From NCBI GenBank assembly GCA_034530615.2, contig JAVRCV020000049.1:192001-256000 (forward strand): a stretch of 64,000 bases of DNA, written 5' to 3'. Made by a program: the position numbers and the translations under genes. The stretch comes from Aulosira sp. ZfuVER01 (GTDB taxonomy: Bacteria; Cyanobacteriota; Cyanobacteriia; Cyanobacteriales; Nostocaceae). Below are positions 10,637 to 21,207 of the stretch, in pieces. How positions within the stretch are numbered: the stretch's first letter is position 1; each line of letters starts with the position of its first letter. The notes under the pieces are model-generated. The model did not search any database, was not told where the DNA came from, and saw only the letters and a program-made list of their open reading frames with translations.

Positions 10637-10811
10637 CAGATAAAGCTTTAATGAATTTGGGTTACATCAATTTTAGAGCATAGTTTTTGAACAGAAATAC
10701 TTGGGCTTACTCACCCATCCCTATCAAGCTGAATAAAATAGCGAATTTTGGTTTTCCTGTCATCTTCTATAATTGATAAAACCTGGACAACTAAATCTTA
10801 GGCATGAGACA

Positions 10812-13742
10812 GTGACAGAAGCAGGAAGTTACAAAGATACTGTAAATCTACCCAAAACGAACTTTGATATGCGGGCGAACGCGCTCAAGCGTGAGCCAGA
10901 AATCCAAAAATTTTGGGAAGAAAATAAAATTTACGATCGCCTTTCGCAAAATAATCCCGGCGAATTATTTATACTGCACGATGGGCCTCCCTACGCAAAT
11001 GGCTCACTTCATACTGGTCATGCCTTAAATAAAATTCTCAAAGATATTATTAATCGCTACCAACTGCTGCGGGGGCGAAAGGTTCGTTATGTGCCAGGTT
11101 GGGACTGCCACGGCTTGCCAATCGAACTGAAAGTTTTGCAGAATATGAAGTCAGCAGAACGGCAAAATCTCACGCCTTTACAACTGCGGCAGAAAGCGAA
11201 AGAATTTGCCCTCGCAACAGTAGATGCGCAACGCCAAAGTTTTAAACGTTATGGTGTTTGGGGTGATTGGGATAATCCTTATCTGACTTTGAAGCCGGAA
11301 TATGAAGCAGCGCAAATTGGTGTTTTTGGTCAGATGGTGTTGAAAGGCTACATCTATCGTGGCTTAAAGCCGGTTCACTGGAGTCCTAGTTCTAAGACTG
11401 CTTTGGCTGAGGCTGAGTTGGAATACCCGGAAGGTCATACTTCTCGCAGTATCTACGCGGCTTTCCCCGTCACTAGTTTGTCGGAAGCAGCTAAACCACT
11501 GCTAGGAGAATATTTACCAGATTTGGGTGTGGCTGTTTGGACAACTACACCTTGGACAATTCCCGGTAACTTGGCGGTAGCGGTGAATGCAGACCTAAAC
11601 TACGCTGTGGTGGAAGTTTCAAGCAGAGACGCGGAGGAGGACACTTGCGTGGGCGGGTCTCCCGACTTGAGCAAAGTGTCCGTCGCGCAGAGAGGATTTA
11701 AGTATCTAATTGTGGCGGCTGATTTGGTGGAACGTTTAGCTGCTACTTTGGAACTAGAGCTAACTGTAAAAGCCATATTCAAAGGGAAAGATTTAGAACA
11801 TATCACCTACCGTCATCCTTTATTTGACCGCGAAAGTCCGGTGGTTGTAGGTGGCGATTACATTACCACTGAGTCCGGTACAGGGTTGGTACATACTGCG
11901 CCCGGTCACGGTCAAGAAGACTACATTGTAGGTCAGCGTTACGGTTTGCCTATCCTTGCACCAGTAGACGATAACGGCAACTTTACCCAAGAGGCGGGAC
12001 ATTTTGCTGGGTTGAATGTGCTGGGTGATGGAAATCAGGCGGTAATTGATGCGTTAGCTGCGGCTGGTTCTCTGTTGAAGGAAGAACCCTATCAGCATAA
12101 ATATCCTTACGACTGGCGGACGAAAAAGCCGACGATTTTCCGCGCCACCGAACAATGGTTTGCTTCGGTGGAAGGATTTAGAGAAGAAGCATTAAAAGCG
12201 ATCGCCTCGGTAAAATGGATTCCAGCCCAAGGTGAAAATCGCATCACGCCAATGGTGGCGGAACGTTCTGATTGGTGTATTTCCCGTCAGCGCGCTTGGG
12301 GTGTGCCAATTCCGGTTTTCTATGATGAAGAAACTGGGGAACCACTGCTGAATGAAGAAACCATCAACCACGTCCAAGCCATTATCGCCGAAAAAGGTTC
12401 CGATGCTTGGTGGGAATTGTCGGTAGAGGAATTATTACCAGAACAATACCAGAATAACGGTCGGTCTTACCGCCGAGGTACTGACACAATGGATGTGTGG
12501 TTTGATTCTGGTTCATCTTGGGCAGCTGTTATCAAGCAGCGTCCAGAATTGCGCTACCCTGCGGATATGTATTTAGAAGGTTCCGACCAACATCGCGGTT
12601 GGTTCCAGTCCAGTTTGCTCACCAGTGTAGCAGTGAATGGCATTGCACCTTACAAAACTGTCTTGACTCACGGCTTTGTCCTTGATGAACAAGGGCGGAA
12701 GATGAGTAAGTCATTGGGGAATGTGGTAGATCCGCAAGTGATGATTGTCGGCGGTAAAGACCAGAAAAAAGAACCCCCCTATGGTGCTGATGTGTTGCGG
12801 TTGTGGGTGTCGTCGGTAGATTACACCTCCGATGTGCGTATAGGTAACAACATCATCAAGCAGCTAAATGATGTCAGGGGTAAGATTCGCAATACAGCGC
12901 GTTTCTTGCTGGGTAGCTTGCATGATTTTGACCCAGAAAAAGATGCAGTACCTTTCGAGGAATTGCCAGAACTCGACCGCTATATGCTGCACCGCATCAC
13001 CGAGGTATTCGGTGAAGTCACAGAAGCTTTTGACAGTTTCCAATTCTTCCGCTTCTTCCAGACAGTGCAGAATTTCTGCGTTGTGGATTTATCCAACTTT
13101 TATCTGGATGTTGCTAAAGATAGACTGTACATCAGCACACCTAAAGCTTTCCGCCGTCGCAGTTGTCAAACAGTGCTGAAGATAGCTTTAGAGAATTTAG
13201 CACGAGCGATCGCCCCTGTGTTATGCCACACCGCCGAAGATATTTGGCAACATCTCCCCTACGCAACACCTTACAAATCGGTGTTTGAAGCCGGTTGGGT
13301 ACAAGTAGAGGGAGAATGGCTAAATCCAGAATTAGGTGAATTTTGGGAAGCATTGCGACAACTCCGCACCGATGTTAACAAGGTCTTAGAACTAGCCAGG
13401 ATCGAAAAACTCATTGGTTCATCCCTGGAGGCGAAAGCTTTAATTCACATACCTCACAAACAGTTAGGCGATGCTATCAAAGCTTTTAATCCTGTTAGCG
13501 GTAACGGTATTGATGAACTGCGGTACTTATTGCTGACTTCTCAAGTGGAATTATTAGATTCTGCCGAGAAATTGCAAGGATTGAAATATACAGCGCAGAC
13601 GGAAGACTGGACAATAGGTGTAGTGAATGCAGATGGCGAGAAGTGCGATCGCTGTTGGAACTACTCCACCCACGTGGGAGAATCAAAAGAACATCCCCTA
13701 CTTTGCGAACGGTGCGTTCCAGCCTTAGCAGGTGAGTTTTAG
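10812..13742 (+). CDS. ileS: Isoleucine--tRNA ligase (type 1)
   Basis: PPYANG-HTGH, GWDCHGLP, WTTTPWT, GTGLVHTAPGHG, DWCISRQR, KMSKS and C-terminal CDRC...CERC Zn finger. GTG start at 10812. Confidence 0.98.
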   Translation: MTEAGSYKDTVNLPKTNFDMRANALKREPEIQKFWEENKIYDRLSQNNPGELFILHDGPPYANGSLHTGHALNKILKDIINRYQLLRGRKVRYVPGWDCHGLPIELKVLQNMKSAERQNLTPLQLRQKAKEFALATVDAQRQSFKRYGVWGDWDNPYLTLKPEYEAAQIGVFGQMVLKGYIYRGLKPVHWSPSSKTALAEAELEYPEGHTSRSIYAAFPVTSLSEAAKPLLGEYLPDLGVAVWTTTPWTIPGNLAVAVNADLNYAVVEVSSRDAEEDTCVGGSPDLSKVSVAQRGFKYLIVAADLVERLAATLELELTVKAIFKGKDLEHITYRHPLFDRESPVVVGGDYITTESGTGLVHTAPGHGQEDYIVGQRYGLPILAPVDDNGNFTQEAGHFAGLNVLGDGNQAVIDALAAAGSLLKEEPYQHKYPYDWRTKKPTIFRATEQWFASVEGFREEALKAIASVKWIPAQGENRITPMVAERSDWCISRQRAWGVPIPVFYDEETGEPLLNEETINHVQAIIAEKGSDAWWELSVEELLPEQYQNNGRSYRRGTDTMDVWFDSGSSWAAVIKQRPELRYPADMYLEGSDQHRGWFQSSLLTSVAVNGIAPYKTVLTHGFVLDEQGRKMSKSLGNVVDPQVMIVGGKDQKKEPPYGADVLRLWVSSVDYTSDVRIGNNIIKQLNDVRGKIRNTARFLLGSLHDFDPEKDAVPFEELPELDRYMLHRITEVFGEVTEAFDSFQFFRFFQTVQNFCVVDLSNFYLDVAKDRLYISTPKAFRRRSCQTVLKIALENLARAIAPVLCHTAEDIWQHLPYATPYKSVFEAGWVQVEGEWLNPELGEFWEALRQLRTDVNKVLELARIEKLIGSSLEAKALIHIPHKQLGDAIKAFNPVSGNGIDELRYLLLTSQVELLDSAEKLQGLKYTAQTEDWTIGVVNADGEKCDRCWNYSTHVGESKEHPLLCERCVPALAGEF
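11636..11683. mobile_element. Small palindromic dispersed repeat inserted in frame in ileS
   Basis: ggacacttgc...cggg-tct-cccg...gcaaagtgtcc hairpin inside gcagagacgc/cgcagaga repeats; translates as EDTCVGGSPDLSKVSV. Boundaries approximate. Confidence 0.7.
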
Positions 13743-13744
13743 GT

Positions 13745-13797
13745 ATTGGGCATAGGGCATGGGGCATAGGGCATTTTGTCCCCATCCCCCATTCCCC
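13745..13797. repeat. STRR heptamer repeats (GGGCATN)
   Basis: attgggcatagggcatggggcatagggcat followed by cccat/cccatt repeats. Confidence 0.85.
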
Positions 13798-13881: not shown

Positions 13882-14127
13882 ATGACTAATCTCTTACAAG
13901 AAGCATTTGCCGTCGTCTCACAGCTACCGGAAGCTGAACAAAATGCGATCGCTCAACTGATTTTGCAGCAAATAGCCCAGCGCGATCAATCACTGCATAA
14001 AATACCTATAGATTTTATGCAATTCGCTGGTATTGCTAGTGCTGAAGAAACAATACTTTTGCAAACTCTTGAACGTGAGATTGAAGAACAGCGATCGTTA
14101 GACTTGCAAAGACAAATCGACCTGTGA
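13882..14127 (+). CDS. Putative antitoxin of a VapBC-type pair
   Basis: 81 aa (MTNLLQEAFAVVSQLPEAEQNAIA); GTGA overlap with the PIN gene. Confidence 0.7.
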   Translation: MTNLLQEAFAVVSQLPEAEQNAIAQLILQQIAQRDQSLHKIPIDFMQFAGIASAEETILLQTLEREIEEQRSLDLQRQIDL

Positions 14128-14540
14128 AAAAAGCTTTATTGGATACTAATATCTTGTCATACTTCCTGCGAGGTGAATTGCAAGTTGTCACAAAATTAAG
14201 TGAATACCAACAATTTCACAGCAATTTAACTTTTTCTGTTCTCACCTACTATGAGATCAAGAGTGGCTTACTCTACAAAGATGCAAGGAAACTGCTTCAA
14301 CAATTTGAAATTCTTGCCAATGGCAGTGAAATTTTACAACTCGATTTAGAAACAGCTAATATTGCAAGTATCATTTACACAGACTTACGTCAAAAAGGTT
14401 TACTAATTAGTCCGATTGACTTGCTTATTGCAGCATCAGCAATTCAACATGAGTGTGTTTTAATTACTGCAAATATTAAACATTTTCAGAATATCGTTAA
14501 CTTAGAATTTGACAATTGGGCAGCACCTCCCTTGTCATGA
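14124..14540 (+). CDS. vapC: PIN-domain VapC toxin
   Basis: LLDTNIL, TYYEI..G, DLLIAASA, LITANIKHF. Confidence 0.9.
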   Translation: MKKALLDTNILSYFLRGELQVVTKLSEYQQFHSNLTFSVLTYYEIKSGLLYKDARKLLQQFEILANGSEILQLDLETANIASIIYTDLRQKGLLISPIDLLIAASAIQHECVLITANIKHFQNIVNLEFDNWAAPPLS

Positions 14541-14568
14541 AAATTGTACACCAGCAAGGCTTTTATTT

Positions 14569-14640
14569 GGGGGAATGGGGCATTGGGCATGGGGCATAGG
14601 GCAAGAAGGCAATAGTCCTCCTTGTCCCCCTTCCAGTCCC
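14569..14640. repeat. STRR heptamer repeats
   Basis: gggaatggggcattgggcatggggcatagggca ... ccttgtcccc. Confidence 0.8.
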
Positions 14641-15525
14641 CTACAGCTTCTCCAACAACTCCTGAGTTAACTGAATAAATGATTTAGAACCAGGTGATTG
14701 AGGACTCATTAAAACAGCCGGCATAAAACTATCAACAGCTTTTGCCACATTCACATCAACTGGAATTTGGTTTTTACAAATTTTATCTACACCAAAATCT
14801 TCGACAACGCGATGCATAACTTGTTTATAGTATCTGCCAGTCAGGAGATTTGCACTCGACATACTGAATACAATCCCCAGCATTTTTATATCGATTTTCG
14901 CTTCATGTTCGTGACTGTCTTTTAATTGTCCAATGCGTCTTTCCAACAATTGAATACCTACTACAGATAAAGGTTCTGGTTTAGCAGGTAAAATATAAAA
15001 ATCACTGCAAGCCAAAGCGCTACGAGTTAATAGATTATAGCCAGGCGCACAATCTAGAATGATAAAATCATACTCTTGGCGAACTGGTTTTAAGATGTTA
15101 TTAATTAACACCCTTTCAAAACGATTCCAAACTGTTTCAAAATCCTGCTCGCCTAAAGCAACCGATTGTTCGTGCAGCATTTCTGAAACAACAAATTCAT
15201 CATATAAATCGATATCTCCTGGTAATAAATTCAATCCAGGTAGATTACAAACGTTAGTGTGAACGATATCCTGAATCGTCAACTTAGCGTTTGGTTCTGG
15301 TGCGATAACTTGATCTATTAGATATCGAAATGTCTTTCTATTTTTTCGACGCTTGGCAAATTCCAAAGGCGACATCAGGCTGAGTGTGGCACTAATTTGG
15401 CTATCTAAGTCCAGAACCAGCACCCGTTTTCCATGATATTTAGCTAAACAAGTAGCTAAATTAACTGTAATGGTGGTTTTACCGACACCACCTTTCATAT
15501 TTGCAGTTGCAATTACATATCCCAT
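14641..15525 (-). CDS. ParA/Soj family ATPase
   Basis: Deviant Walker A KGGVGKTT, LDLDSQ, YDFIILDCAPG. Confidence 0.92.
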   Translation of the reverse strand: MGYVIATANMKGGVGKTTITVNLATCLAKYHGKRVLVLDLDSQISATLSLMSPLEFAKRRKNRKTFRYLIDQVIAPEPNAKLTIQDIVHTNVCNLPGLNLLPGDIDLYDEFVVSEMLHEQSVALGEQDFETVWNRFERVLINNILKPVRQEYDFIILDCAPGYNLLTRSALACSDFYILPAKPEPLSVVGIQLLERRIGQLKDSHEHEAKIDIKMLGIVFSMSSANLLTGRYYKQVMHRVVEDFGVDKICKNQIPVDVNVAKAVDSFMPAVLMSPQSPGSKSFIQLTQELLEKL

Positions 15526-15709
15526 TGGTTAAGTCCTTTGATGGCGCATCCCCATGTAGGTAGCGTACATCTCTCCTGATATATGGAAATTTTCGTTAAA
15601 TTTAATATTTCTGGAATACACAAAGTTATTCCAGTAACACGACTGTGATTGAGGCAGTCAGAATTATAGCAGTGAGTAGCACATTACTAACATTGAGAGG
15701 AAATTAATT

Positions 15710-18271
15710 TTAGGTTGATGGTAGCTGAATTTTAGTAGCTAATAAACTTTGTAAGCGTTGTAGTTGTGGCCCGACTTGATAAAGTAAATCACCTTTTCCT
15801 AACAAGTAAGCTGCTGCCGTTGATGTACCGCCTAAAATAATTTTGGAATCTGCTTCACTTCTGGTGCTGAGAGCAATTCTTCCTGGTAAATTAGAGCGAA
15901 TCAGTGGAGTAACAATACCCGCTTCGGGACGTTGAGTAGCAATAATCAGATGAATGCCCGCAGCTCTTGCTTTTGCTCCCAATCTTTTAATACTTTGTTC
16001 TAATGCAGTACGAATTTCCTTTTCTGCCATAAAGTCAGCATATTCATCAAAAATGCAGACAATGCGAGGTAGAAGTTGAGCAGAACGATGATTATAAGTA
16101 CTCAAATCAGCACACCCAGCTTTCTCAAACCTTTGGTAACGAGACTCCATCTCTGCAACTAATTCATCCATCAGTTCAATAGCGCGATCGCTATCCTTGA
16201 CAATAGATGAATATGACCAAGACATTTGCTCAAACTCTGGAAACGTCACCCGTTTAGGATCGACAAGGGCGATTTTGAGGTGTTGTGGAGAATGACGATA
16301 TAGTAAGCTGAGGAGGAGCGATCGCAAAAATTCGCTCTTACCACTCCCAGTTGTACCTCCAACTAAAAAGTGACAGGTATTCGGATCGGATAAATCAGCT
16401 TCTATTAATTCTCCTTCCAAATTCACCCCAATCGCAATTTTTACAGGTGCATTTGCAGGTAAGAATAGCGGTTGAATATATGCCTCAAAGCTAGCAACCT
16501 CTCTATCTGAACGGGGTAAATCTATACTGACATACCCAGCTTGTGGAGCAATTAGAGGTGGATTTGCTAACCCTAACTGCACTTGTAAGTCATTAGACAA
16601 GCGTAAAATCGAATTTACACTTACGCCTAAATGGGGTTTCAGCTTCACCCGAATAAAAGCAGGCCCCACAGCAGCGCCTTGATAATCAACTTTAATTTTA
16701 AAAGATTGCAAGGTAGTAACTAATTTTTCACCCATGACATCGCCTAATGCTGATGTCTCCTCCTTTTTAATTGAAGGTTGCGGAGTCTCAACTTCTGTAT
16801 CCACAAAAAAAGTCTGACACTTTTTCTGCTGGGGACAAATTTCACACAGATAAGGCTGAGTTGTTCGTGGTGGTGAATTGGGATGAGGCGGTTCCCAAGT
16901 TAGCCATTCTTGCATTTGTTGCAATTTATAGGGAATCAACTGATGCACAGTATTTTCTAGCTGTTCCCAAGAATATTGATACTCTTTAAATTCTGGTAAA
17001 ACACAGTAAACTGCTGAGTCAACTGGTACTTTTTTCTTTTGCCATAACAAATAACTATACAATGAAACCTGAGCCAACTGCGCTGATGGATCAACAGGTT
17101 GATAGGTTTTAAACTCCACCACAAAAAGGCGATTTACTTCAAAATTAAAAACTAAACAATCAAATTCTCCCCTAACTAGTTGCTGTGTTCCATTAGGGAG
17201 ACTAAAGTAATGCTCAATACTGCGTTCTCCAGAGAGAAAGGTATTACTAATAACGGTTTCTGCATTGCAATAGCGCCGATTAATTACTAACAATTCTGCA
17301 AAGCGCTTAATTAATCCTTGTAATCCTTGCCAAACTTGTAAAAGTGCTTGAGCTTGACTACCATCTTTCGCAACTGCTTCCTGTAGATAGGGAAAGAATT
17401 CAAGTTGATAAAATATTTGTTGCATTTGTGAGGCAACTTCCTCTACCTTTATTTGTGCAGCCTCTGGTTTAAACAAAGTTTTAAATTGCGGTTCAATCAC
17501 AGCTAATTTCACAAATTTATCCGCTAATTTATGAAACGGATTACCGATGCCAATAGCTGTATCTGGTGGTAAAAATATTGCCTTATCGCCAAATGTATGA
17601 TTTAGGTAGAATAAGCGGGGACACTCAAAAGCAAGACGGACTTTAGTCACCGTTAAAGATGAATTATCAGATTTTTCTTTTGGCTGTTTTGAGCTATTAT
17701 TTCCCATATCAAAAATATTAATTACAGCATTGGGATATGATATTTCTAGTAACCGACGATGCACAGCCGCCAAATAAACCGTATCCATCGCCGCATATTT
17801 TAGCTGCTTGTCGCTAAGAGGACGCTTTCCCCAATCACTTCCCTGTTCTTCAATTTCTACATTCGAGAAATTGCAAAGTTCTGCTGCTAAAGTTTTCAGT
17901 TTTAAATTGGAAACTTCCAAGCGTTGACGAGTAATTTTTCTGGCTAATTGTAAAGTACAAGTAACATTCTGCGCTAGCTTACCTCCTAAATACTTTACGT
18001 CATAGCTAGCATTATGAAAAATCTTCTCAATATTGGCATTACTCATGATTTGGTTAACAAAATATGCTGCCAAATCACGTTTATTTAAGACATCGAGAAT
18101 GTAAGCACATACACCTGTTGAGTCTGTCGGATCAGCTAATACCTGAATCAGCGATAATTTTGGATAGTAAGTATTCCAGTCAGCAGTTTCTGTATCTAAC
18201 CAAAGAATTTTAGTAGATGCTAATTTAGATATTAATTCCCGGATTTCCGGAGCTTCTGTCAGGTATTGCAT
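15710..18271 (-). CDS. Fusion: DEDDy 3'-5' exonuclease + RecB/Cas4-like PD-(D/E)XK nuclease + FtsK/SpoIIIE translocase
   Basis: ExoI WLDTE, ExoII FHNASYD, ExoIII YAAMD; FECPR...GEFD...VVEFKT...AQVSLY...CEICPQQKKC; FtsK motifs GGTTGSGKS, LVDPK, IFDEYAD, RAAGIHLIIATQRP, LLGKGDLL. No TM anchor or gamma domain visible. Confidence 0.88.
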   Translation of the reverse strand: MQYLTEAPEIRELISKLASTKILWLDTETADWNTYYPKLSLIQVLADPTDSTGVCAYILDVLNKRDLAAYFVNQIMSNANIEKIFHNASYDVKYLGGKLAQNVTCTLQLARKITRQRLEVSNLKLKTLAAELCNFSNVEIEEQGSDWGKRPLSDKQLKYAAMDTVYLAAVHRRLLEISYPNAVINIFDMGNNSSKQPKEKSDNSSLTVTKVRLAFECPRLFYLNHTFGDKAIFLPPDTAIGIGNPFHKLADKFVKLAVIEPQFKTLFKPEAAQIKVEEVASQMQQIFYQLEFFPYLQEAVAKDGSQAQALLQVWQGLQGLIKRFAELLVINRRYCNAETVISNTFLSGERSIEHYFSLPNGTQQLVRGEFDCLVFNFEVNRLFVVEFKTYQPVDPSAQLAQVSLYSYLLWQKKKVPVDSAVYCVLPEFKEYQYSWEQLENTVHQLIPYKLQQMQEWLTWEPPHPNSPPRTTQPYLCEICPQQKKCQTFFVDTEVETPQPSIKKEETSALGDVMGEKLVTTLQSFKIKVDYQGAAVGPAFIRVKLKPHLGVSVNSILRLSNDLQVQLGLANPPLIAPQAGYVSIDLPRSDREVASFEAYIQPLFLPANAPVKIAIGVNLEGELIEADLSDPNTCHFLVGGTTGSGKSEFLRSLLLSLLYRHSPQHLKIALVDPKRVTFPEFEQMSWSYSSIVKDSDRAIELMDELVAEMESRYQRFEKAGCADLSTYNHRSAQLLPRIVCIFDEYADFMAEKEIRTALEQSIKRLGAKARAAGIHLIIATQRPEAGIVTPLIRSNLPGRIALSTRSEADSKIILGGTSTAAAYLLGKGDLLYQVGPQLQRLQSLLATKIQLPST

Positions 18272-18301
18272 TGACTAATTATTAACACTTATAGCAAGAA
18301 A

Positions 18302-20338
18302 TTATTTTTTAGGTACTAAGCAAATTAACTGAGCTTCCAGCCTAGCTTTAGGGTCAAGTAATTTAATTTGATTTTTTTGACATAATTCTTGAATAGATGC
18401 TTCTATTTGAGCTTCAATTGCAGTAGGAAAGTGACTGAGGGTATTTTGAATCAAAGTTTGTCTACTTAATAAATACTGAGTAGTGACTAAATTTAATATA
18501 AAGTCATTTATTGGTAATTTTGGTGGAGGTTTGATTGTTCCTTTAACTATGCCTAAATCTTTTAATAAAGGACAGTCTTCTAAAACTTTAGATTCACGAA
18601 TAAGAGCTTGCAAATTCTTTAGGTTGATTGTTTGACTACCAATAACTAAATCATTTTCACGAGCATCTCTAACTAAACTTTGGTAAGTCTCTAGGAAATG
18701 AACAGAGATAAGATTTGGCTTGATGTGTTTATGAGGTGATTCTGTAAAAATCTCTACAAATACTTTATGTCCTTTATTTTTAGAATCACCCAATCCTTCT
18801 GCGCGAATCAGATATAGAGTTAAAGAAGGATCTTTTTTAATAGCTTTTTTGCAAGCTTCCATGATGTAGAAGAAGTTGGTCATATTAGCATCTTCTGTCC
18901 AAACTACTCCGAAGTTTCCAGGGTTATTAGGCAATTGATAGCCTATTGAATAACTAGCATACTTAGTTCCAGTAAAGAGTGGAGTTTTAATTCCTTCTAT
19001 TTGCAACCCTGCTAAAGATTCTTTTATAATCTGAATCAAGTCTGGTGAAGATAAATGGCGAAATTTTGTAATTCGCTGTTGAACTTTAGTAAATTCTTCC
19101 TGCCATTTTAATTTAAATGATGCTAGTAATTTTAGTTTTTTATTTTTGTCCTCTACTTCATCATTTTTAGGATATGTAAAATCTGCTGGATTTTTGCCAT
19201 TTACTAACCATTCTTTATAGTATTGAAATATATCTCTACCAAGAATTATAATATTTCTGGGATCAGTCTTTCCTGAAGGAAATTCTTCTTCTAAATATTG
19301 GCGATTTAAAGGATAAAGGGCAGAATTGGGTTTAGGATTTACCTGACGATGAAGCAAATAAAGACGAGATGCTAGTAGTAGTTCTGCTTGTTGTAAATTG
19401 ATAGGTCTGAGAGGAACTTGTCGTTCTATTCTAGCTTTATCAGTCTGATCAATCTGCCTTGCTTGCTTATTCCAAATATCTGTATTAATGCTGATAATAA
19501 TTAGAAAATTGTTATCTTCATCATGTATTTTTGTGTTAACGTCAAACAAGTTTTGCAAGGCAAGTGAACCATCTGGGAGACGCGCAATATTGTTTAACTG
19601 ATCAAAGCAAAGTACAATTGGCTGGGTATCAGCTGCAATTCTACTAAAGTTCGCTAAAGTTTCTCTTGCAGCTTCTTCTGTATCAATAGACCTCTTAACT
19701 TTTAGCTCTTGCAAAGACTCTTCAGCTAAATCATCTCCACGTAACCACTCGCAAGCTACAGGATACAGTTCTAAATCCGTCAGATCATGTAAAACTCCGA
19801 AAAAGCTGTCTGCATTATAGATACCTACTTGTTTGTATATATCTTTTAGTTTGTGAATAAATCTGCGGCGATCACTTCGCAATAAATCAAATATATCATC
19901 CTTAAAAATGCGTTCTTTAACGCTGCGTTGTTTAATAGCAAATAGAACATTTTCCAGCCAAAGTAACAGTTGAGAATCTTTTTGTCCCTCTGGAACTTGT
20001 ACTAAACTATCAACTGTGTAGCGTAAAATGTGCCTCCAGATGCTATCAGTCTGAGGAAATGGAGGAATATAAACAAAAAATGCTTTATGGTTTAATTTGT
20101 TCTTAAGTCTACCCAAAAGATAGGTCTTGCCAGAACCACCATCACCGTCCAATATCAGAGTACGTGTGCGATGATCTTGAGCAACTTGGTCGAGTATTAC
20201 TTCAATTGTAGTGATCGCTTCTTGATGGATAGAATCAACTATAGGTTCTGGCTGTTGCTGTTTGTGCCAAAAGTTGACAGAGCGAAAGTTATCGAAGGGG
20301 TTGATACTCCTCAGAATAATTTCATCTATAGATACCAT
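18302..20338 (-). CDS. P-loop (AAA-like) ATPase, possibly RcaG-like
   Basis: INPFD N-terminus, Walker A GDGGSGKT, Walker B-like IVLCFDQ, WLRG motif; long C-terminal extension. Confidence 0.8.
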   Translation of the reverse strand: MVSIDEIILRSINPFDNFRSVNFWHKQQQPEPIVDSIHQEAITTIEVILDQVAQDHRTRTLILDGDGGSGKTYLLGRLKNKLNHKAFFVYIPPFPQTDSIWRHILRYTVDSLVQVPEGQKDSQLLLWLENVLFAIKQRSVKERIFKDDIFDLLRSDRRRFIHKLKDIYKQVGIYNADSFFGVLHDLTDLELYPVACEWLRGDDLAEESLQELKVKRSIDTEEAARETLANFSRIAADTQPIVLCFDQLNNIARLPDGSLALQNLFDVNTKIHDEDNNFLIIISINTDIWNKQARQIDQTDKARIERQVPLRPINLQQAELLLASRLYLLHRQVNPKPNSALYPLNRQYLEEEFPSGKTDPRNIIILGRDIFQYYKEWLVNGKNPADFTYPKNDEVEDKNKKLKLLASFKLKWQEEFTKVQQRITKFRHLSSPDLIQIIKESLAGLQIEGIKTPLFTGTKYASYSIGYQLPNNPGNFGVVWTEDANMTNFFYIMEACKKAIKKDPSLTLYLIRAEGLGDSKNKGHKVFVEIFTESPHKHIKPNLISVHFLETYQSLVRDARENDLVIGSQTINLKNLQALIRESKVLEDCPLLKDLGIVKGTIKPPPKLPINDFILNLVTTQYLLSRQTLIQNTLSHFPTAIEAQIEASIQELCQKNQIKLLDPKARLEAQLICLVPKK

Positions 20339-20349
20339 AAAGTTACTCT

Positions 20350-21207
20350 TTAGTTCACGGTAAGTTTAATGAAAAACAGCGGACTTCCTGAACGCTGGTT
20401 AATTCCAGCGTTGACTTGCTCTTGAGTGTATTCTTGAGCGTGTACAAGCGCTCTCAATTCAATTTGGTCATTCTTTTGCAAACGATACAGTACTTGATCT
20501 AATTCATCCCTTGAAAGCGGTGGTTGTAACTTTTGTCGCAGATGGAAAATAGGTAAATAATTATCTGTACCCAATTCCTTATCTAATTTTTCAATAATTT
20601 GTAAAATTTCTTCATCACTGAGATTACTAATTATTTCAGAAGCTGACTCTGTAGCAATTGTTAGTGAAGTAGAAACTTGTTCTGACTTTACTCGCAAGTT
20701 CTTGCGTAAAAACCGCAGGTAATTACCCAGCAATTCCAAACTAATGACGGGGTTAGAGCCTTTGTTAGGACTGTAATCATCCCGCAAATACTCAATTCCT
20801 CTTTCAGTTAACCAAACTTCGGCTTTAGTTCTTTGAATTTTGATTTCAGCTTCAATCAACCCCCGTTCCTTCAGGGTGTTCAATATCGCATCTCGTTCAG
20901 CAGCTTTTGGCGAGGTGATTTTGCTGGGGGCGATTTTCCCAGAAGCTTTACTTATCTTGTCCAGTACTTTGAGTTCTTTGTCTGTGATCGGTACTTGGGC
21001 TGCATCAAGCTTCAGCAGAGCTTGACCCGGCGGTAAAATTTTAACTGTGGCAATCTCACGGGTATAGTCTACCAGTTCGCGATCGCCCAAATCTCGACAA
21101 ATTTTGTCTTTACCTTTAAACGAGCTAAAAGCACTTGCAGTAAGGCTAGAGCGATAATTGGGACATCCCAACAACTTGAGTAGAAACTTTAACTCGTTCG
21201 TTTCCAT
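20350..21207 (-). CDS. rcaD: RcaD-like multi-winged-helix DNA-binding protein
   Basis: ELKFLLKLLG N-terminus; wHTH-like segments (LKERGLIE...VWLTERGIEYL; YLPIFHLRQKLQPPLSRDELDQVLYRLQ). Matches my recollection of proteins annotated RcaD; not verified by search. Confidence 0.6.
   Translation of the reverse strand: METNELKFLLKLLGCPNYRSSLTASAFSSFKGKDKICRDLGDRELVDYTREIATVKILPPGQALLKLDAAQVPITDKELKVLDKISKASGKIAPSKITSPKAAERDAILNTLKERGLIEAEIKIQRTKAEVWLTERGIEYLRDDYSPNKGSNPVISLELLGNYLRFLRKNLRVKSEQVSTSLTIATESASEIISNLSDEEILQIIEKLDKELGTDNYLPIFHLRQKLQPPLSRDELDQVLYRLQKNDQIELRALVHAQEYTQEQVNAGINQRSGSPLFFIKLTVN

Follow-up and report, generated by a model that had tools for sequence, protein, structure and literature searches.

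The DNA analysed here, called the window throughout, is a stretch of 64,000 nucleotides (nt) from Aulosira sp. ZfuVER01 (contig JAVRCV020000049.1, positions 192,001 to 256,000 of the forward strand). It carries a three-gene set, rcaD-rcaG-effector, which encodes a protein with several winged helices, an AAA+ ATPase and a fusion of two nucleases with an FtsK motor. The parA gene follows, and all four genes are co-oriented on the minus strand. Their coordinates (Table 1) and the gaps of 11, 30 and 184 nt between them agreed exactly with the original prediction, which had been made from the sequence alone. Comparison across genomes showed that rcaD-rcaG-effector is a strongly co-conserved cyanobacterial operon, and its domain content suggests that it is a family within a predicted class of DNA-capture systems, the class itself having already been described with a predicted role.

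Table 1. Genes and effector domains at the rcaD-rcaG locus (positions in the window)
Feature	Position	Strand	Product or evidence
rcaD	20350..21207	-	Open reading frame (ORF) listing, 285 amino acids (aa); three winged-helix units at about residues 1-66, 76-145 and 198-285
rcaG	18302..20338	-	ORF listing, 678-aa Orc/Cdc6-type AAA+ ATPase
Effector gene	15710..18271	-	853-aa DEDDy exonuclease + Cas4/AddB-like Fe-S PD-(D/E)XK nuclease + FtsK alpha-beta motor
3'-5' exonuclease domain	17747..18265	-	Residues 3-175; Pfam DNA_pol_A_exo1 7.5e-31; RNase D TIGR01388 4e-20
Cas4/AddB-like PD-(D/E)XK nuclease domain	16814..17656	-	Residues 206-486; Pfam PDDEXK_1 1.8e-11
FtsK alpha + FtsK/SpoIIIE ATPase	15926..16762	-	FtsK_alpha, residues 504-586, 2.6e-10; FtsK_SpoIIIE, residues 607-782, 7.2e-39
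parA	14641..15525	-	294 aa; ParA-type by Pfam AAA_31 1.1e-36
vapC	14124..14540	+	PIN domain, Pfam 1.6e-13
vapB	13882..14127	+	Pair adjoins parA
IleRS gene	10773..13742		vapBC lies between this gene and parA

The product of rcaD had no Pfam match, and the NCBI label of its homologues is 'transcription factor RcaD'. RcaD of Tolypothrix PCC 7601 is also a protein of 285 aa, an experimentally shown DNA binder that binds the cpc2 promoter, and RcaG is a putative ATPase whose gene lies just downstream of rcaD (PMC2799420, available in part). An unclassified Tolypothrix protein, again of 285 aa, was 84% identical to the RcaD of the window. By the NCBI naming, this match and the rcaD-rcaG gene order, with the ATPase gene directly downstream, the first two genes are orthologous to rcaD and rcaG of Calothrix (Tolypothrix) PCC 7601, an identity that had been proposed from the sequence. 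The predicted structure of RcaD was composed of three winged-helix units, with a hypervariable, disordered linker at residues 175-194 in a protein whose mean column identity was 56%. A Foldseek search with this model returned nothing at E ≤ 0.001, and VIA-align returned only generic winged helices among the matches listed; DndG, SspB and FokI, to which RcaD may nonetheless be related, were not among the 50 VIA-align matches listed.

RcaG matched Pfam AAA_16 (1.1e-7) and BrxC_BrxD (6.1e-5), and its structure was predicted confidently, with a predicted local distance difference test (pLDDT) score of 88.6 and a predicted template modelling score of 0.89. The Walker A motif is GDGGSGKT (residues 64-71) and the Walker B motif is VLCFDQ; of 40 sequences, 39 had Q or N after its aspartate. 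As Walker B reads D-Q/N, the sequence suggests that RcaG binds ATP and hydrolyses it slowly, acting as a switch or loader and not as a fast motor. In the structural model there is an alpha/beta insert at about residues 430-560 and a C-terminal winged helix at residues 601-676. Residues 431-511 of the insert form an alpha-beta-beta-beta-alpha-beta unit, which fits the topology of a restriction-endonuclease (REase) core, as judged from the model, and a D...(D/E)xK motif was not conserved in it.

Structure prediction of an RcaD-RcaG complex gave a score of 0.57, compared to 0.00 for the best control, a result graded as 'weak support'. The mark for this grading was passed by 116 of 157 solved complexes and by 2 of 215 mismatched pairs, but only 18 of those 157 complexes, together with both passing mismatches, passed it with scores of 0.60 or less. 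At least 68% of the contacts agreed between the prediction runs, and the pLDDT of the partner was at least 76.

In an alignment of 27 homologues of the effector fusion, the DEDDy residues D26, E28, D91, Y159 and D163 were invariant, as were T27, the nuclease triad D371, E386 and K388, the four cysteines (C217, C476, C479 and C485) of the Cas4/AddB iron-sulphur (Fe-S) pattern, and the Walker A (G642, K645 and S646) and Walker B (D742 and E743) residues of the motor. The DTE and EFK motifs to which attention had been drawn earlier are D26-T27-E28 and E386-F387-K388. As the catalytic residues are invariant, both nucleases and the FtsK motor look active. The nuclease domain also matched Cas4 models of PADLOC and NCBIfam (4.9e-5 and 1.8e-4), and the FtsK domain scored better against SspH of a defence system (3.2e-63, PADLOC) than against cellular FtsK (4e-47, NCBIfam). 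No NCBIfam equivalog was above its cut-off for RcaD, RcaG or the fusion. Among the best 120 of 767 matches, full-length fusion homologues with the same architecture and 71-93% identity were found throughout the heterocyst-forming cyanobacteria.

The effector gene is modular, as split, permuted and nuclease-only forms occur. The domain order was permuted to nuclease-exonuclease-FtsK at one locus (L020, genome G002), the exonuclease and an extra nuclease were encoded as separate genes at L027 and L028, a nuclease-only gene followed RcaG at L035 and L075, and the effectors of L016 and L026 were without the exonuclease. The genome of the window also encodes a stand-alone exonuclease of about 307 aa (G000:C36:135018-135551) with 52% identity to residues 1-178 of the fusion; genes resembling it were present in most of the sampled cyanobacterial genomes, and it is likely the source of, or a sister to, the fused domain. 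In the sole genome with the FtsK fusion apart from rcaD-rcaG (G071, L040), the divergent neighbour of the fusion was recR, which may be coincidence.

The distribution of the module was assessed in two overlapping samples. The first comprised 301 cyanobacterial genomes, of which 42 had an RcaG orthologue (E < 1e-90). A gene bearing FtsK lay directly after RcaG in 32 of the 42, the genome of the window included, and a nuclease-only gene in one more (G274). The other nine include two genomes with the FtsK gene elsewhere (G071, and G162, in which it was decayed), three with RcaG alone (G104, G160 and G166), two outside the locus comparison (G178 and G198), and two considered below. RcaD was directly 5' of RcaG in all 32 loci chosen by the adjacency of RcaG and FtsK, one of which ends at a contig edge. 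The second sample came from a search of 185,579 species, with one genome each, which yielded 505 RcaG loci; the best 79 of these were compared. By title, these 79 were cyanobacterial save for unnamed metagenome-assembled genomes (MAGs) and one doubtful "Tatlockia" contig (L069, a 7.9-kb MAG contig with 52% identity), which probably reflects faulty binning and not a member outside the cyanobacteria. RcaD was directly upstream of RcaG in 74 of the 79 loci (four of the five exceptions had less than 270 nt of upstream sequence), and the nuclease/FtsK gene came after RcaG in 55 (of the other 24, six had less than 1 kb of downstream sequence). The three-gene arrangement is far beyond chance, and the three genes are indeed co-conserved.

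Tandem RcaG-RcaG' was found in 7 of the 79 loci. The arrangement RcaD-RcaG-RcaG' without an FtsK gene was seen at L042, L086, L094, L096, L101, L106, L117 and L121, and at L086 and L101 it lay immediately upstream of a full RcaD-RcaG-FtsK set, as two systems back to back. Among 72,556 plasmid records, one carried an RcaG homologue, a Pseudanabaena conjugative megaplasmid with the complete module adjoining a DEAD/DEAH helicase and a SWIM protein. There was no RcaG homologue in 50,697 phage records, which is uninformative either way.

Within the family of the window, 36 genomes (35 other sampled genomes and that of the window) were compared; as these relatives are not independent, the counts are descriptive only. 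An intact module lay beside parA in 14 of the 36, while in three, all of genus g4, all that was left next to parA was a piece of the FtsK C-terminus (80-83% identical). RcaG alone was left in three genomes, the module was split or decayed in two, and there was no trace of it in the remaining 14. Presence varied inside genera, with 6/8 in g7 and 1/5 in g9. The module is an accessory set, patchy within genera and lost or decayed in place in some genomes.

RcaG of this family fell into three classes, with identities of 58-96%, 67-89% and 69% inside the classes and 43-52% between them. The C-terminal winged helix of RcaD (residues 198-285) tracked these classes, whereas the RcaD N-terminus and the FtsK fusion did not. 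Between G236 and G240, two genomes of the same genus, the identities were 89% for the FtsK fusion, 82% for the RcaD N-terminus, 73% for the RcaD C-terminus and 46% for RcaG; between G236 and G020, which belong to different genera, they were 82%, 69%, 92% and 90%, respectively. In the other genera of the family, RcaG was 46-65% and the FtsK fusion 68-74% identical to the proteins of the window, compared to 78-90% for ParA and, in the loci holding it, 82-86% for IleRS. As the identities of RcaG and the RcaD C-terminus decouple from those of the FtsK fusion and the RcaD N-terminus, the 3' third of rcaD and the whole of rcaG form a cassette that has passed between lineages independently of the FtsK fusion, and their joint exchange argues for contact between the two proteins. 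The stretch 18001-20000, over rcaG, has a GC content of 0.334, the minimum of the window (0.38-0.47 in neighbouring stretches), which fits the swapping of rcaG classes among lineages. Balancing selection on genes for specificity or immunity would be expected to produce deep classes of this kind that can be exchanged. Both the class exchange of RcaG and the RcaD C-terminus and the D-Q/N of Walker B are new in this analysis.

ParA and the VapBC pair, which the original prediction had counted or placed with the module, did not hold up as components. The ParA orthologue was single-copy and 78-96% identical in all 35 other family genomes sampled, with or without the module, and in several other families it lay megabases away from the module. 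As it is universal in the family and distant elsewhere, ParA is a core gene and no component, though it is the usual downstream neighbour. VapB and VapC had zero matches at the other copies of the locus (40, 79 and 18 loci searched); the pair was present at the locus of the window only and is a local insertion.

A different gene pair was seen at this site in relatives. It encodes a ParA-like ATPase with an N-terminal extension of 165-240 residues, which at L036 exceeds the Pfam HSDR_N_2 cut-off, and a ParB_N-like protein. The pair lay beside the core parA at L036, L043, L127, L129, L132, L133 and L136-L141, and was also found in 11 of the 79 loci L045-L123. Among the family genomes without an intact module, 10 of 18 had it beside parA, as did two more that kept only RcaG; none of the 13 module-bearing family loci that were fetched had it, and no orthologue is encoded in the genome of the window, where the best match is 34% identical. 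The pair abutted a C-terminal FtsK remnant in three genomes, as if displacing the module, and elsewhere it flanked RcaD-RcaG(-RcaG') on either side. Its sole PADLOC match was a weak one to the candidate PDC-M28B (4e-10). The pair may be an alternative effector or a rival occupant of the same site; its occupation of the site of the lost module is new in this analysis.

Upstream of rcaD are genes for a short-chain dehydrogenase and an MFS transporter. As scans for promoters (23 observed against 22.9 expected) and terminators (4 observed against 5.5 expected) were at chance level, they define no transcription unit. Two stretches of about 35-50 nt, at 13738-13774 and 14565-14615, recurred across many contigs of high depth from RNA libraries of a relative, bordered by unrelated sequence on each side; they are probably small dispersed intergenic repeats.

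We assign a probability of about one half to the reading that rcaD-rcaG-effector belongs to the Orc/CDC6-coupled HerA/FtsK capture systems, which would seize and shred DNA, most likely that of invaders. In its favour, all testable core domains of the published architecture (PMC10853773, available in part) are present. The invariant catalytic residues, the co-conservation, the accessory distribution, the fast, modular evolution with its variants, the better score against SspH than against cellular FtsK, the megaplasmid copy and the RcaD-RcaG complex prediction also count for it. The winged helices of RcaD would bind DNA, and RcaG would be docked by the C-terminal winged helix of RcaD. With its D-Q/N Walker B, RcaG would then act as an ATP-bound switch or loader that marks the DNA and loads or activates the FtsK-fusion ring, much as ORC/Cdc6 does with MCM, where an initiator-clade AAA+ protein with winged helices works beside a ring translocase; the comparison is by analogy only. 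The FtsK ring would reel in the duplex and feed both strands to its own Cas4/AddB-like and DEDDy 3'-5' nucleases. These biochemical steps, the choice of target and the sparing of the cell's own DNA are inferred; the gene order, domains, intact catalytic residues, co-conservation, class exchange and patchiness with decay in place were observed directly. The machine first proposed for this locus, which recognises, pumps and degrades DNA, was right in outline and is the best reading available.

A bolder form of this reading, which we hold only tentatively, would make the RcaD C-terminal winged helix and RcaG a swappable loader and specificity cassette of at least three ancient classes, placing a nuclease-armed FtsK ring in ORC/Cdc6-like manner on chosen DNA for shredding that is free of modification. 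The class structure predicts that the RcaD C-terminus and RcaG are interchangeable only within a class, and if the cassette reading is true, the pigment phenotype of the 2002 rcaD mutant would be a side effect of a disturbed DNA-capture machine.

Several observations weigh against capture. PADLOC, proposed earlier as a check, gave only domain-level matches on the operon (SspH C-terminus, mad8, HerA and Cas4) and no named system. A literature search found no experiment linking any member of the capture class to phage or plasmid restriction; the module had been called uncharacterised, which stands as regards experiments, but its architecture and role had been predicted (PMC10853773). With Pfam and PADLOC, the operon showed no modification enzyme and nothing else by which self could be told from non-self. 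G158 and G194 have RcaD-RcaG or RcaD-RcaG-RcaG', with no FtsK fusion found genome-wide with this query, and given such pairs, RcaD-RcaG may work alone. In the family of the window, the module occupies one stable chromosomal site in synteny with parA and IleRS, and it looks vertically inherited, neither mobile nor in a typical defence island. Of the 37 informative loci, in which the motor is full and is followed by 1.5 kb of sequence or more, 27 have a co-oriented parA next to the FtsK gene on its downstream side; they belong to several orders, and IleRS often comes next. Finally, in RNA sequencing of a relative from one study, contigs of 6720 and 6787 nt spanned rcaD to parA, starting 64-112 nt upstream of rcaD and ending just past the parA stop, with divergent sequence replacing most of the rcaG part. 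They hint that parA is co-transcribed with the module, although such contigs are no proof of a single transcript and library DNA is possible. The operon was covered by no contig of run X2 and by fragments only in run X4; these libraries are from a relative, and non-coverage is uninformative.

The FtsK-ParA pairing and the bridging contigs would also fit chromosome handling. The module would then be a maintenance or repair machine of polyploid, mostly filamentous cyanobacteria, a soluble FtsK motor with nucleases of two polarities, positioned by RcaD and RcaG and working alongside ParA, that would clear, resolve or resect DNA of the cell itself, whether damaged copies or trapped and tangled molecules. 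We consider this unlikely, and place it second for the synteny of FtsK with ParA and the stability of the locus. It draws further support from the fusion being the sole FtsK_SpoIIIE match above the cut-off in the genome, from the 184-nt gap, in which no terminator-like site was seen, and from its likeness to the end-resection machines HerA-NurA and AddAB, both of which join a translocase with nucleases of the two polarities, with an Fe-S nuclease in AddB; this likeness, too, is an analogy only. However, the module was not found with this query in about half of the family genomes and varies inside genera, and such patchy presence argues against essential housekeeping. ParA persists unchanged where the module is lost, deep and exchanged RcaG classes are unexpected for a housekeeping loader, and neither a membrane anchor nor a gamma domain was found in the fusion with Pfam.

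It is improbable that the chief function of RcaD and RcaG is to regulate the transcription of phycobiliprotein operons, with the nuclease/FtsK gene as an unrelated passenger of the operon. Such regulation is the only role published for them (Noubir et al. 2002, as cited in the available part of PMC2799420), and RcaD-RcaG pairs without the FtsK gene do occur. Yet the nuclease/FtsK gene follows RcaG at most of the 79 loci with short gaps or overlaps, the pair is also present in Lyngbya majuscula strains that were not observed to chromatically adapt in culture (PMC2799420), and a transcription factor would be oddly partnered with an Orc/Cdc6 ATPase that has deep allelic classes. Least probable of all, with only a slight chance, is a domesticated or active transfer or replication module of a mobile element, with FtsK as a TraB-like double-stranded DNA pump and Orc/Cdc6 as initiator: the FtsK domain has a weak match to plasmid TraB (3.1e-13, NCBIfam), one copy is on the conjugative megaplasmid and capture systems are termed 'mobile gene neighborhoods' (PMC10853773), but two fused nucleases that look active would destroy the cargo, the copy of the window is not flanked by an integrase, a relaxase or repeat boundaries, the megaplasmid is a single case among the plasmid records, and the chromosomal position is syntenic.

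If the capture reading is true, filamentous cyanobacteria carry a widespread FtsK-pump DNA shredder, prokaryotic immunity or DNA quality control would gain a new class, and RcaD and RcaG, filed for two decades as regulators of the response to light colour, would be adaptors of a DNA machine. Carriers of the module include strains that are open to genetic work and not pathogenic. If the module instead serves ordinary chromosome housekeeping, this would be the first role described for an FtsK-type motor that is the only one these genomes have.

Among known systems, DndFGH/SspFGH resemble the module in being a multi-protein mix of ATPase, winged-helix domains and nuclease. Only the C-terminal motor of SspH was matched (profile positions 1399-1738 of 1766), SspF matched RcaG at Walker A only (0.0038), and the operon had no equivalent of DndF or DndG and no further Dnd/Ssp matches. 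This genome has a DndC-family gene (G000:C13:5569-6903; TIGR03183, 735 bits, above the cut-off), and the family occurred in 83 of the 301 cyanobacterial genomes and in 35/35 of the family of the window, which is unexpectedly core-like for a gene of a modification system; at E ≤ 1e-50, DndC was unmatched in four module-bearing genomes (G014, G128, G250 and G038). As SspH is matched by the motor alone, and as DndC does not follow the module, being in all 35 family genomes regardless of it and unmatched in four carriers, we rejected both a Dnd/Ssp system, which would have the full-length DndH/SspH architecture with its partners, and a link to phosphorothioate modification. BREX, which would combine PglZ, PglX and BrxC, was rejected because PglZ (PF08665) was not found in this 99.99%-complete genome; no PglX or BrxA/B was found among nine neighbouring proteins with Pfam and PADLOC, RcaG is about half the length of BrxC, and the sole match to a BREX model was that of BrxHI (1e-09) to the exonuclease domain of the fusion.

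The fusion shares the alpha and beta motor domains and intact Walker A and B motifs with cellular FtsK/SpoIIIE. In contrast to cellular FtsK, no membrane domain, linker or KOPS-reading gamma domain was found in it (from Pfam, with no Ftsk_gamma match at E ≤ 0.01 and no dedicated transmembrane prediction); its N-terminus consists of the two nucleases, with the exonuclease starting at residue 3, in the position of the membrane anchor of cellular FtsK, and it is dispensable in many relatives. The orthologous RcaD and RcaG of PCC 7601 differ in the role given to them, that in pigment operons, and the downstream nuclease/FtsK gene is unmentioned in the available part of PMC2799420.

Nearest to the module are the Orc/CDC6-coupled 'HerA/FtsK capture systems', a class that Rakesh, Aravind and Krishnan predicted from comparative genomics (Nucleic Acids Res 2024, PMC10853773, available in part); the same group restated the prediction in 2026 (PMC12839542, available in part). 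Cyanobacteria, RcaD and RcaG do not occur in the main text of PMC10853773. Its capture systems are composed of an Orc/CDC6 ATPase with an inactive REase before a C-terminal domain of the wHTH (winged helix-turn-helix) type, an active REase, a HerA/FtsK motor (with FtsK-alpha in one set) and wHTH domains, optionally with a separate fast-evolving protein of 2-4 wHTH domains and a fused 3'-5' exonuclease; the Orc/CDC6 protein is proposed to localise the apparatus on DNA, and the motor to intercept invader DNA and pump it to the nuclease. The counterpart of the inactive REase would be the RcaG unit at residues 431-511, which in the model has a fitting topology and is without a conserved D...(D/E)xK. 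The module of the window shares the Orc/CDC6-family AAA+ ATPase and its C-terminal winged helix in RcaG and the multi-wHTH partner in RcaD, with its three winged helices and hypervariable linker, and it shares in the fusion an REase-fold nuclease that is active by its motifs, a HerA/FtsK ATPase with FtsK-alpha and a 3'-5' exonuclease joined to the motor.

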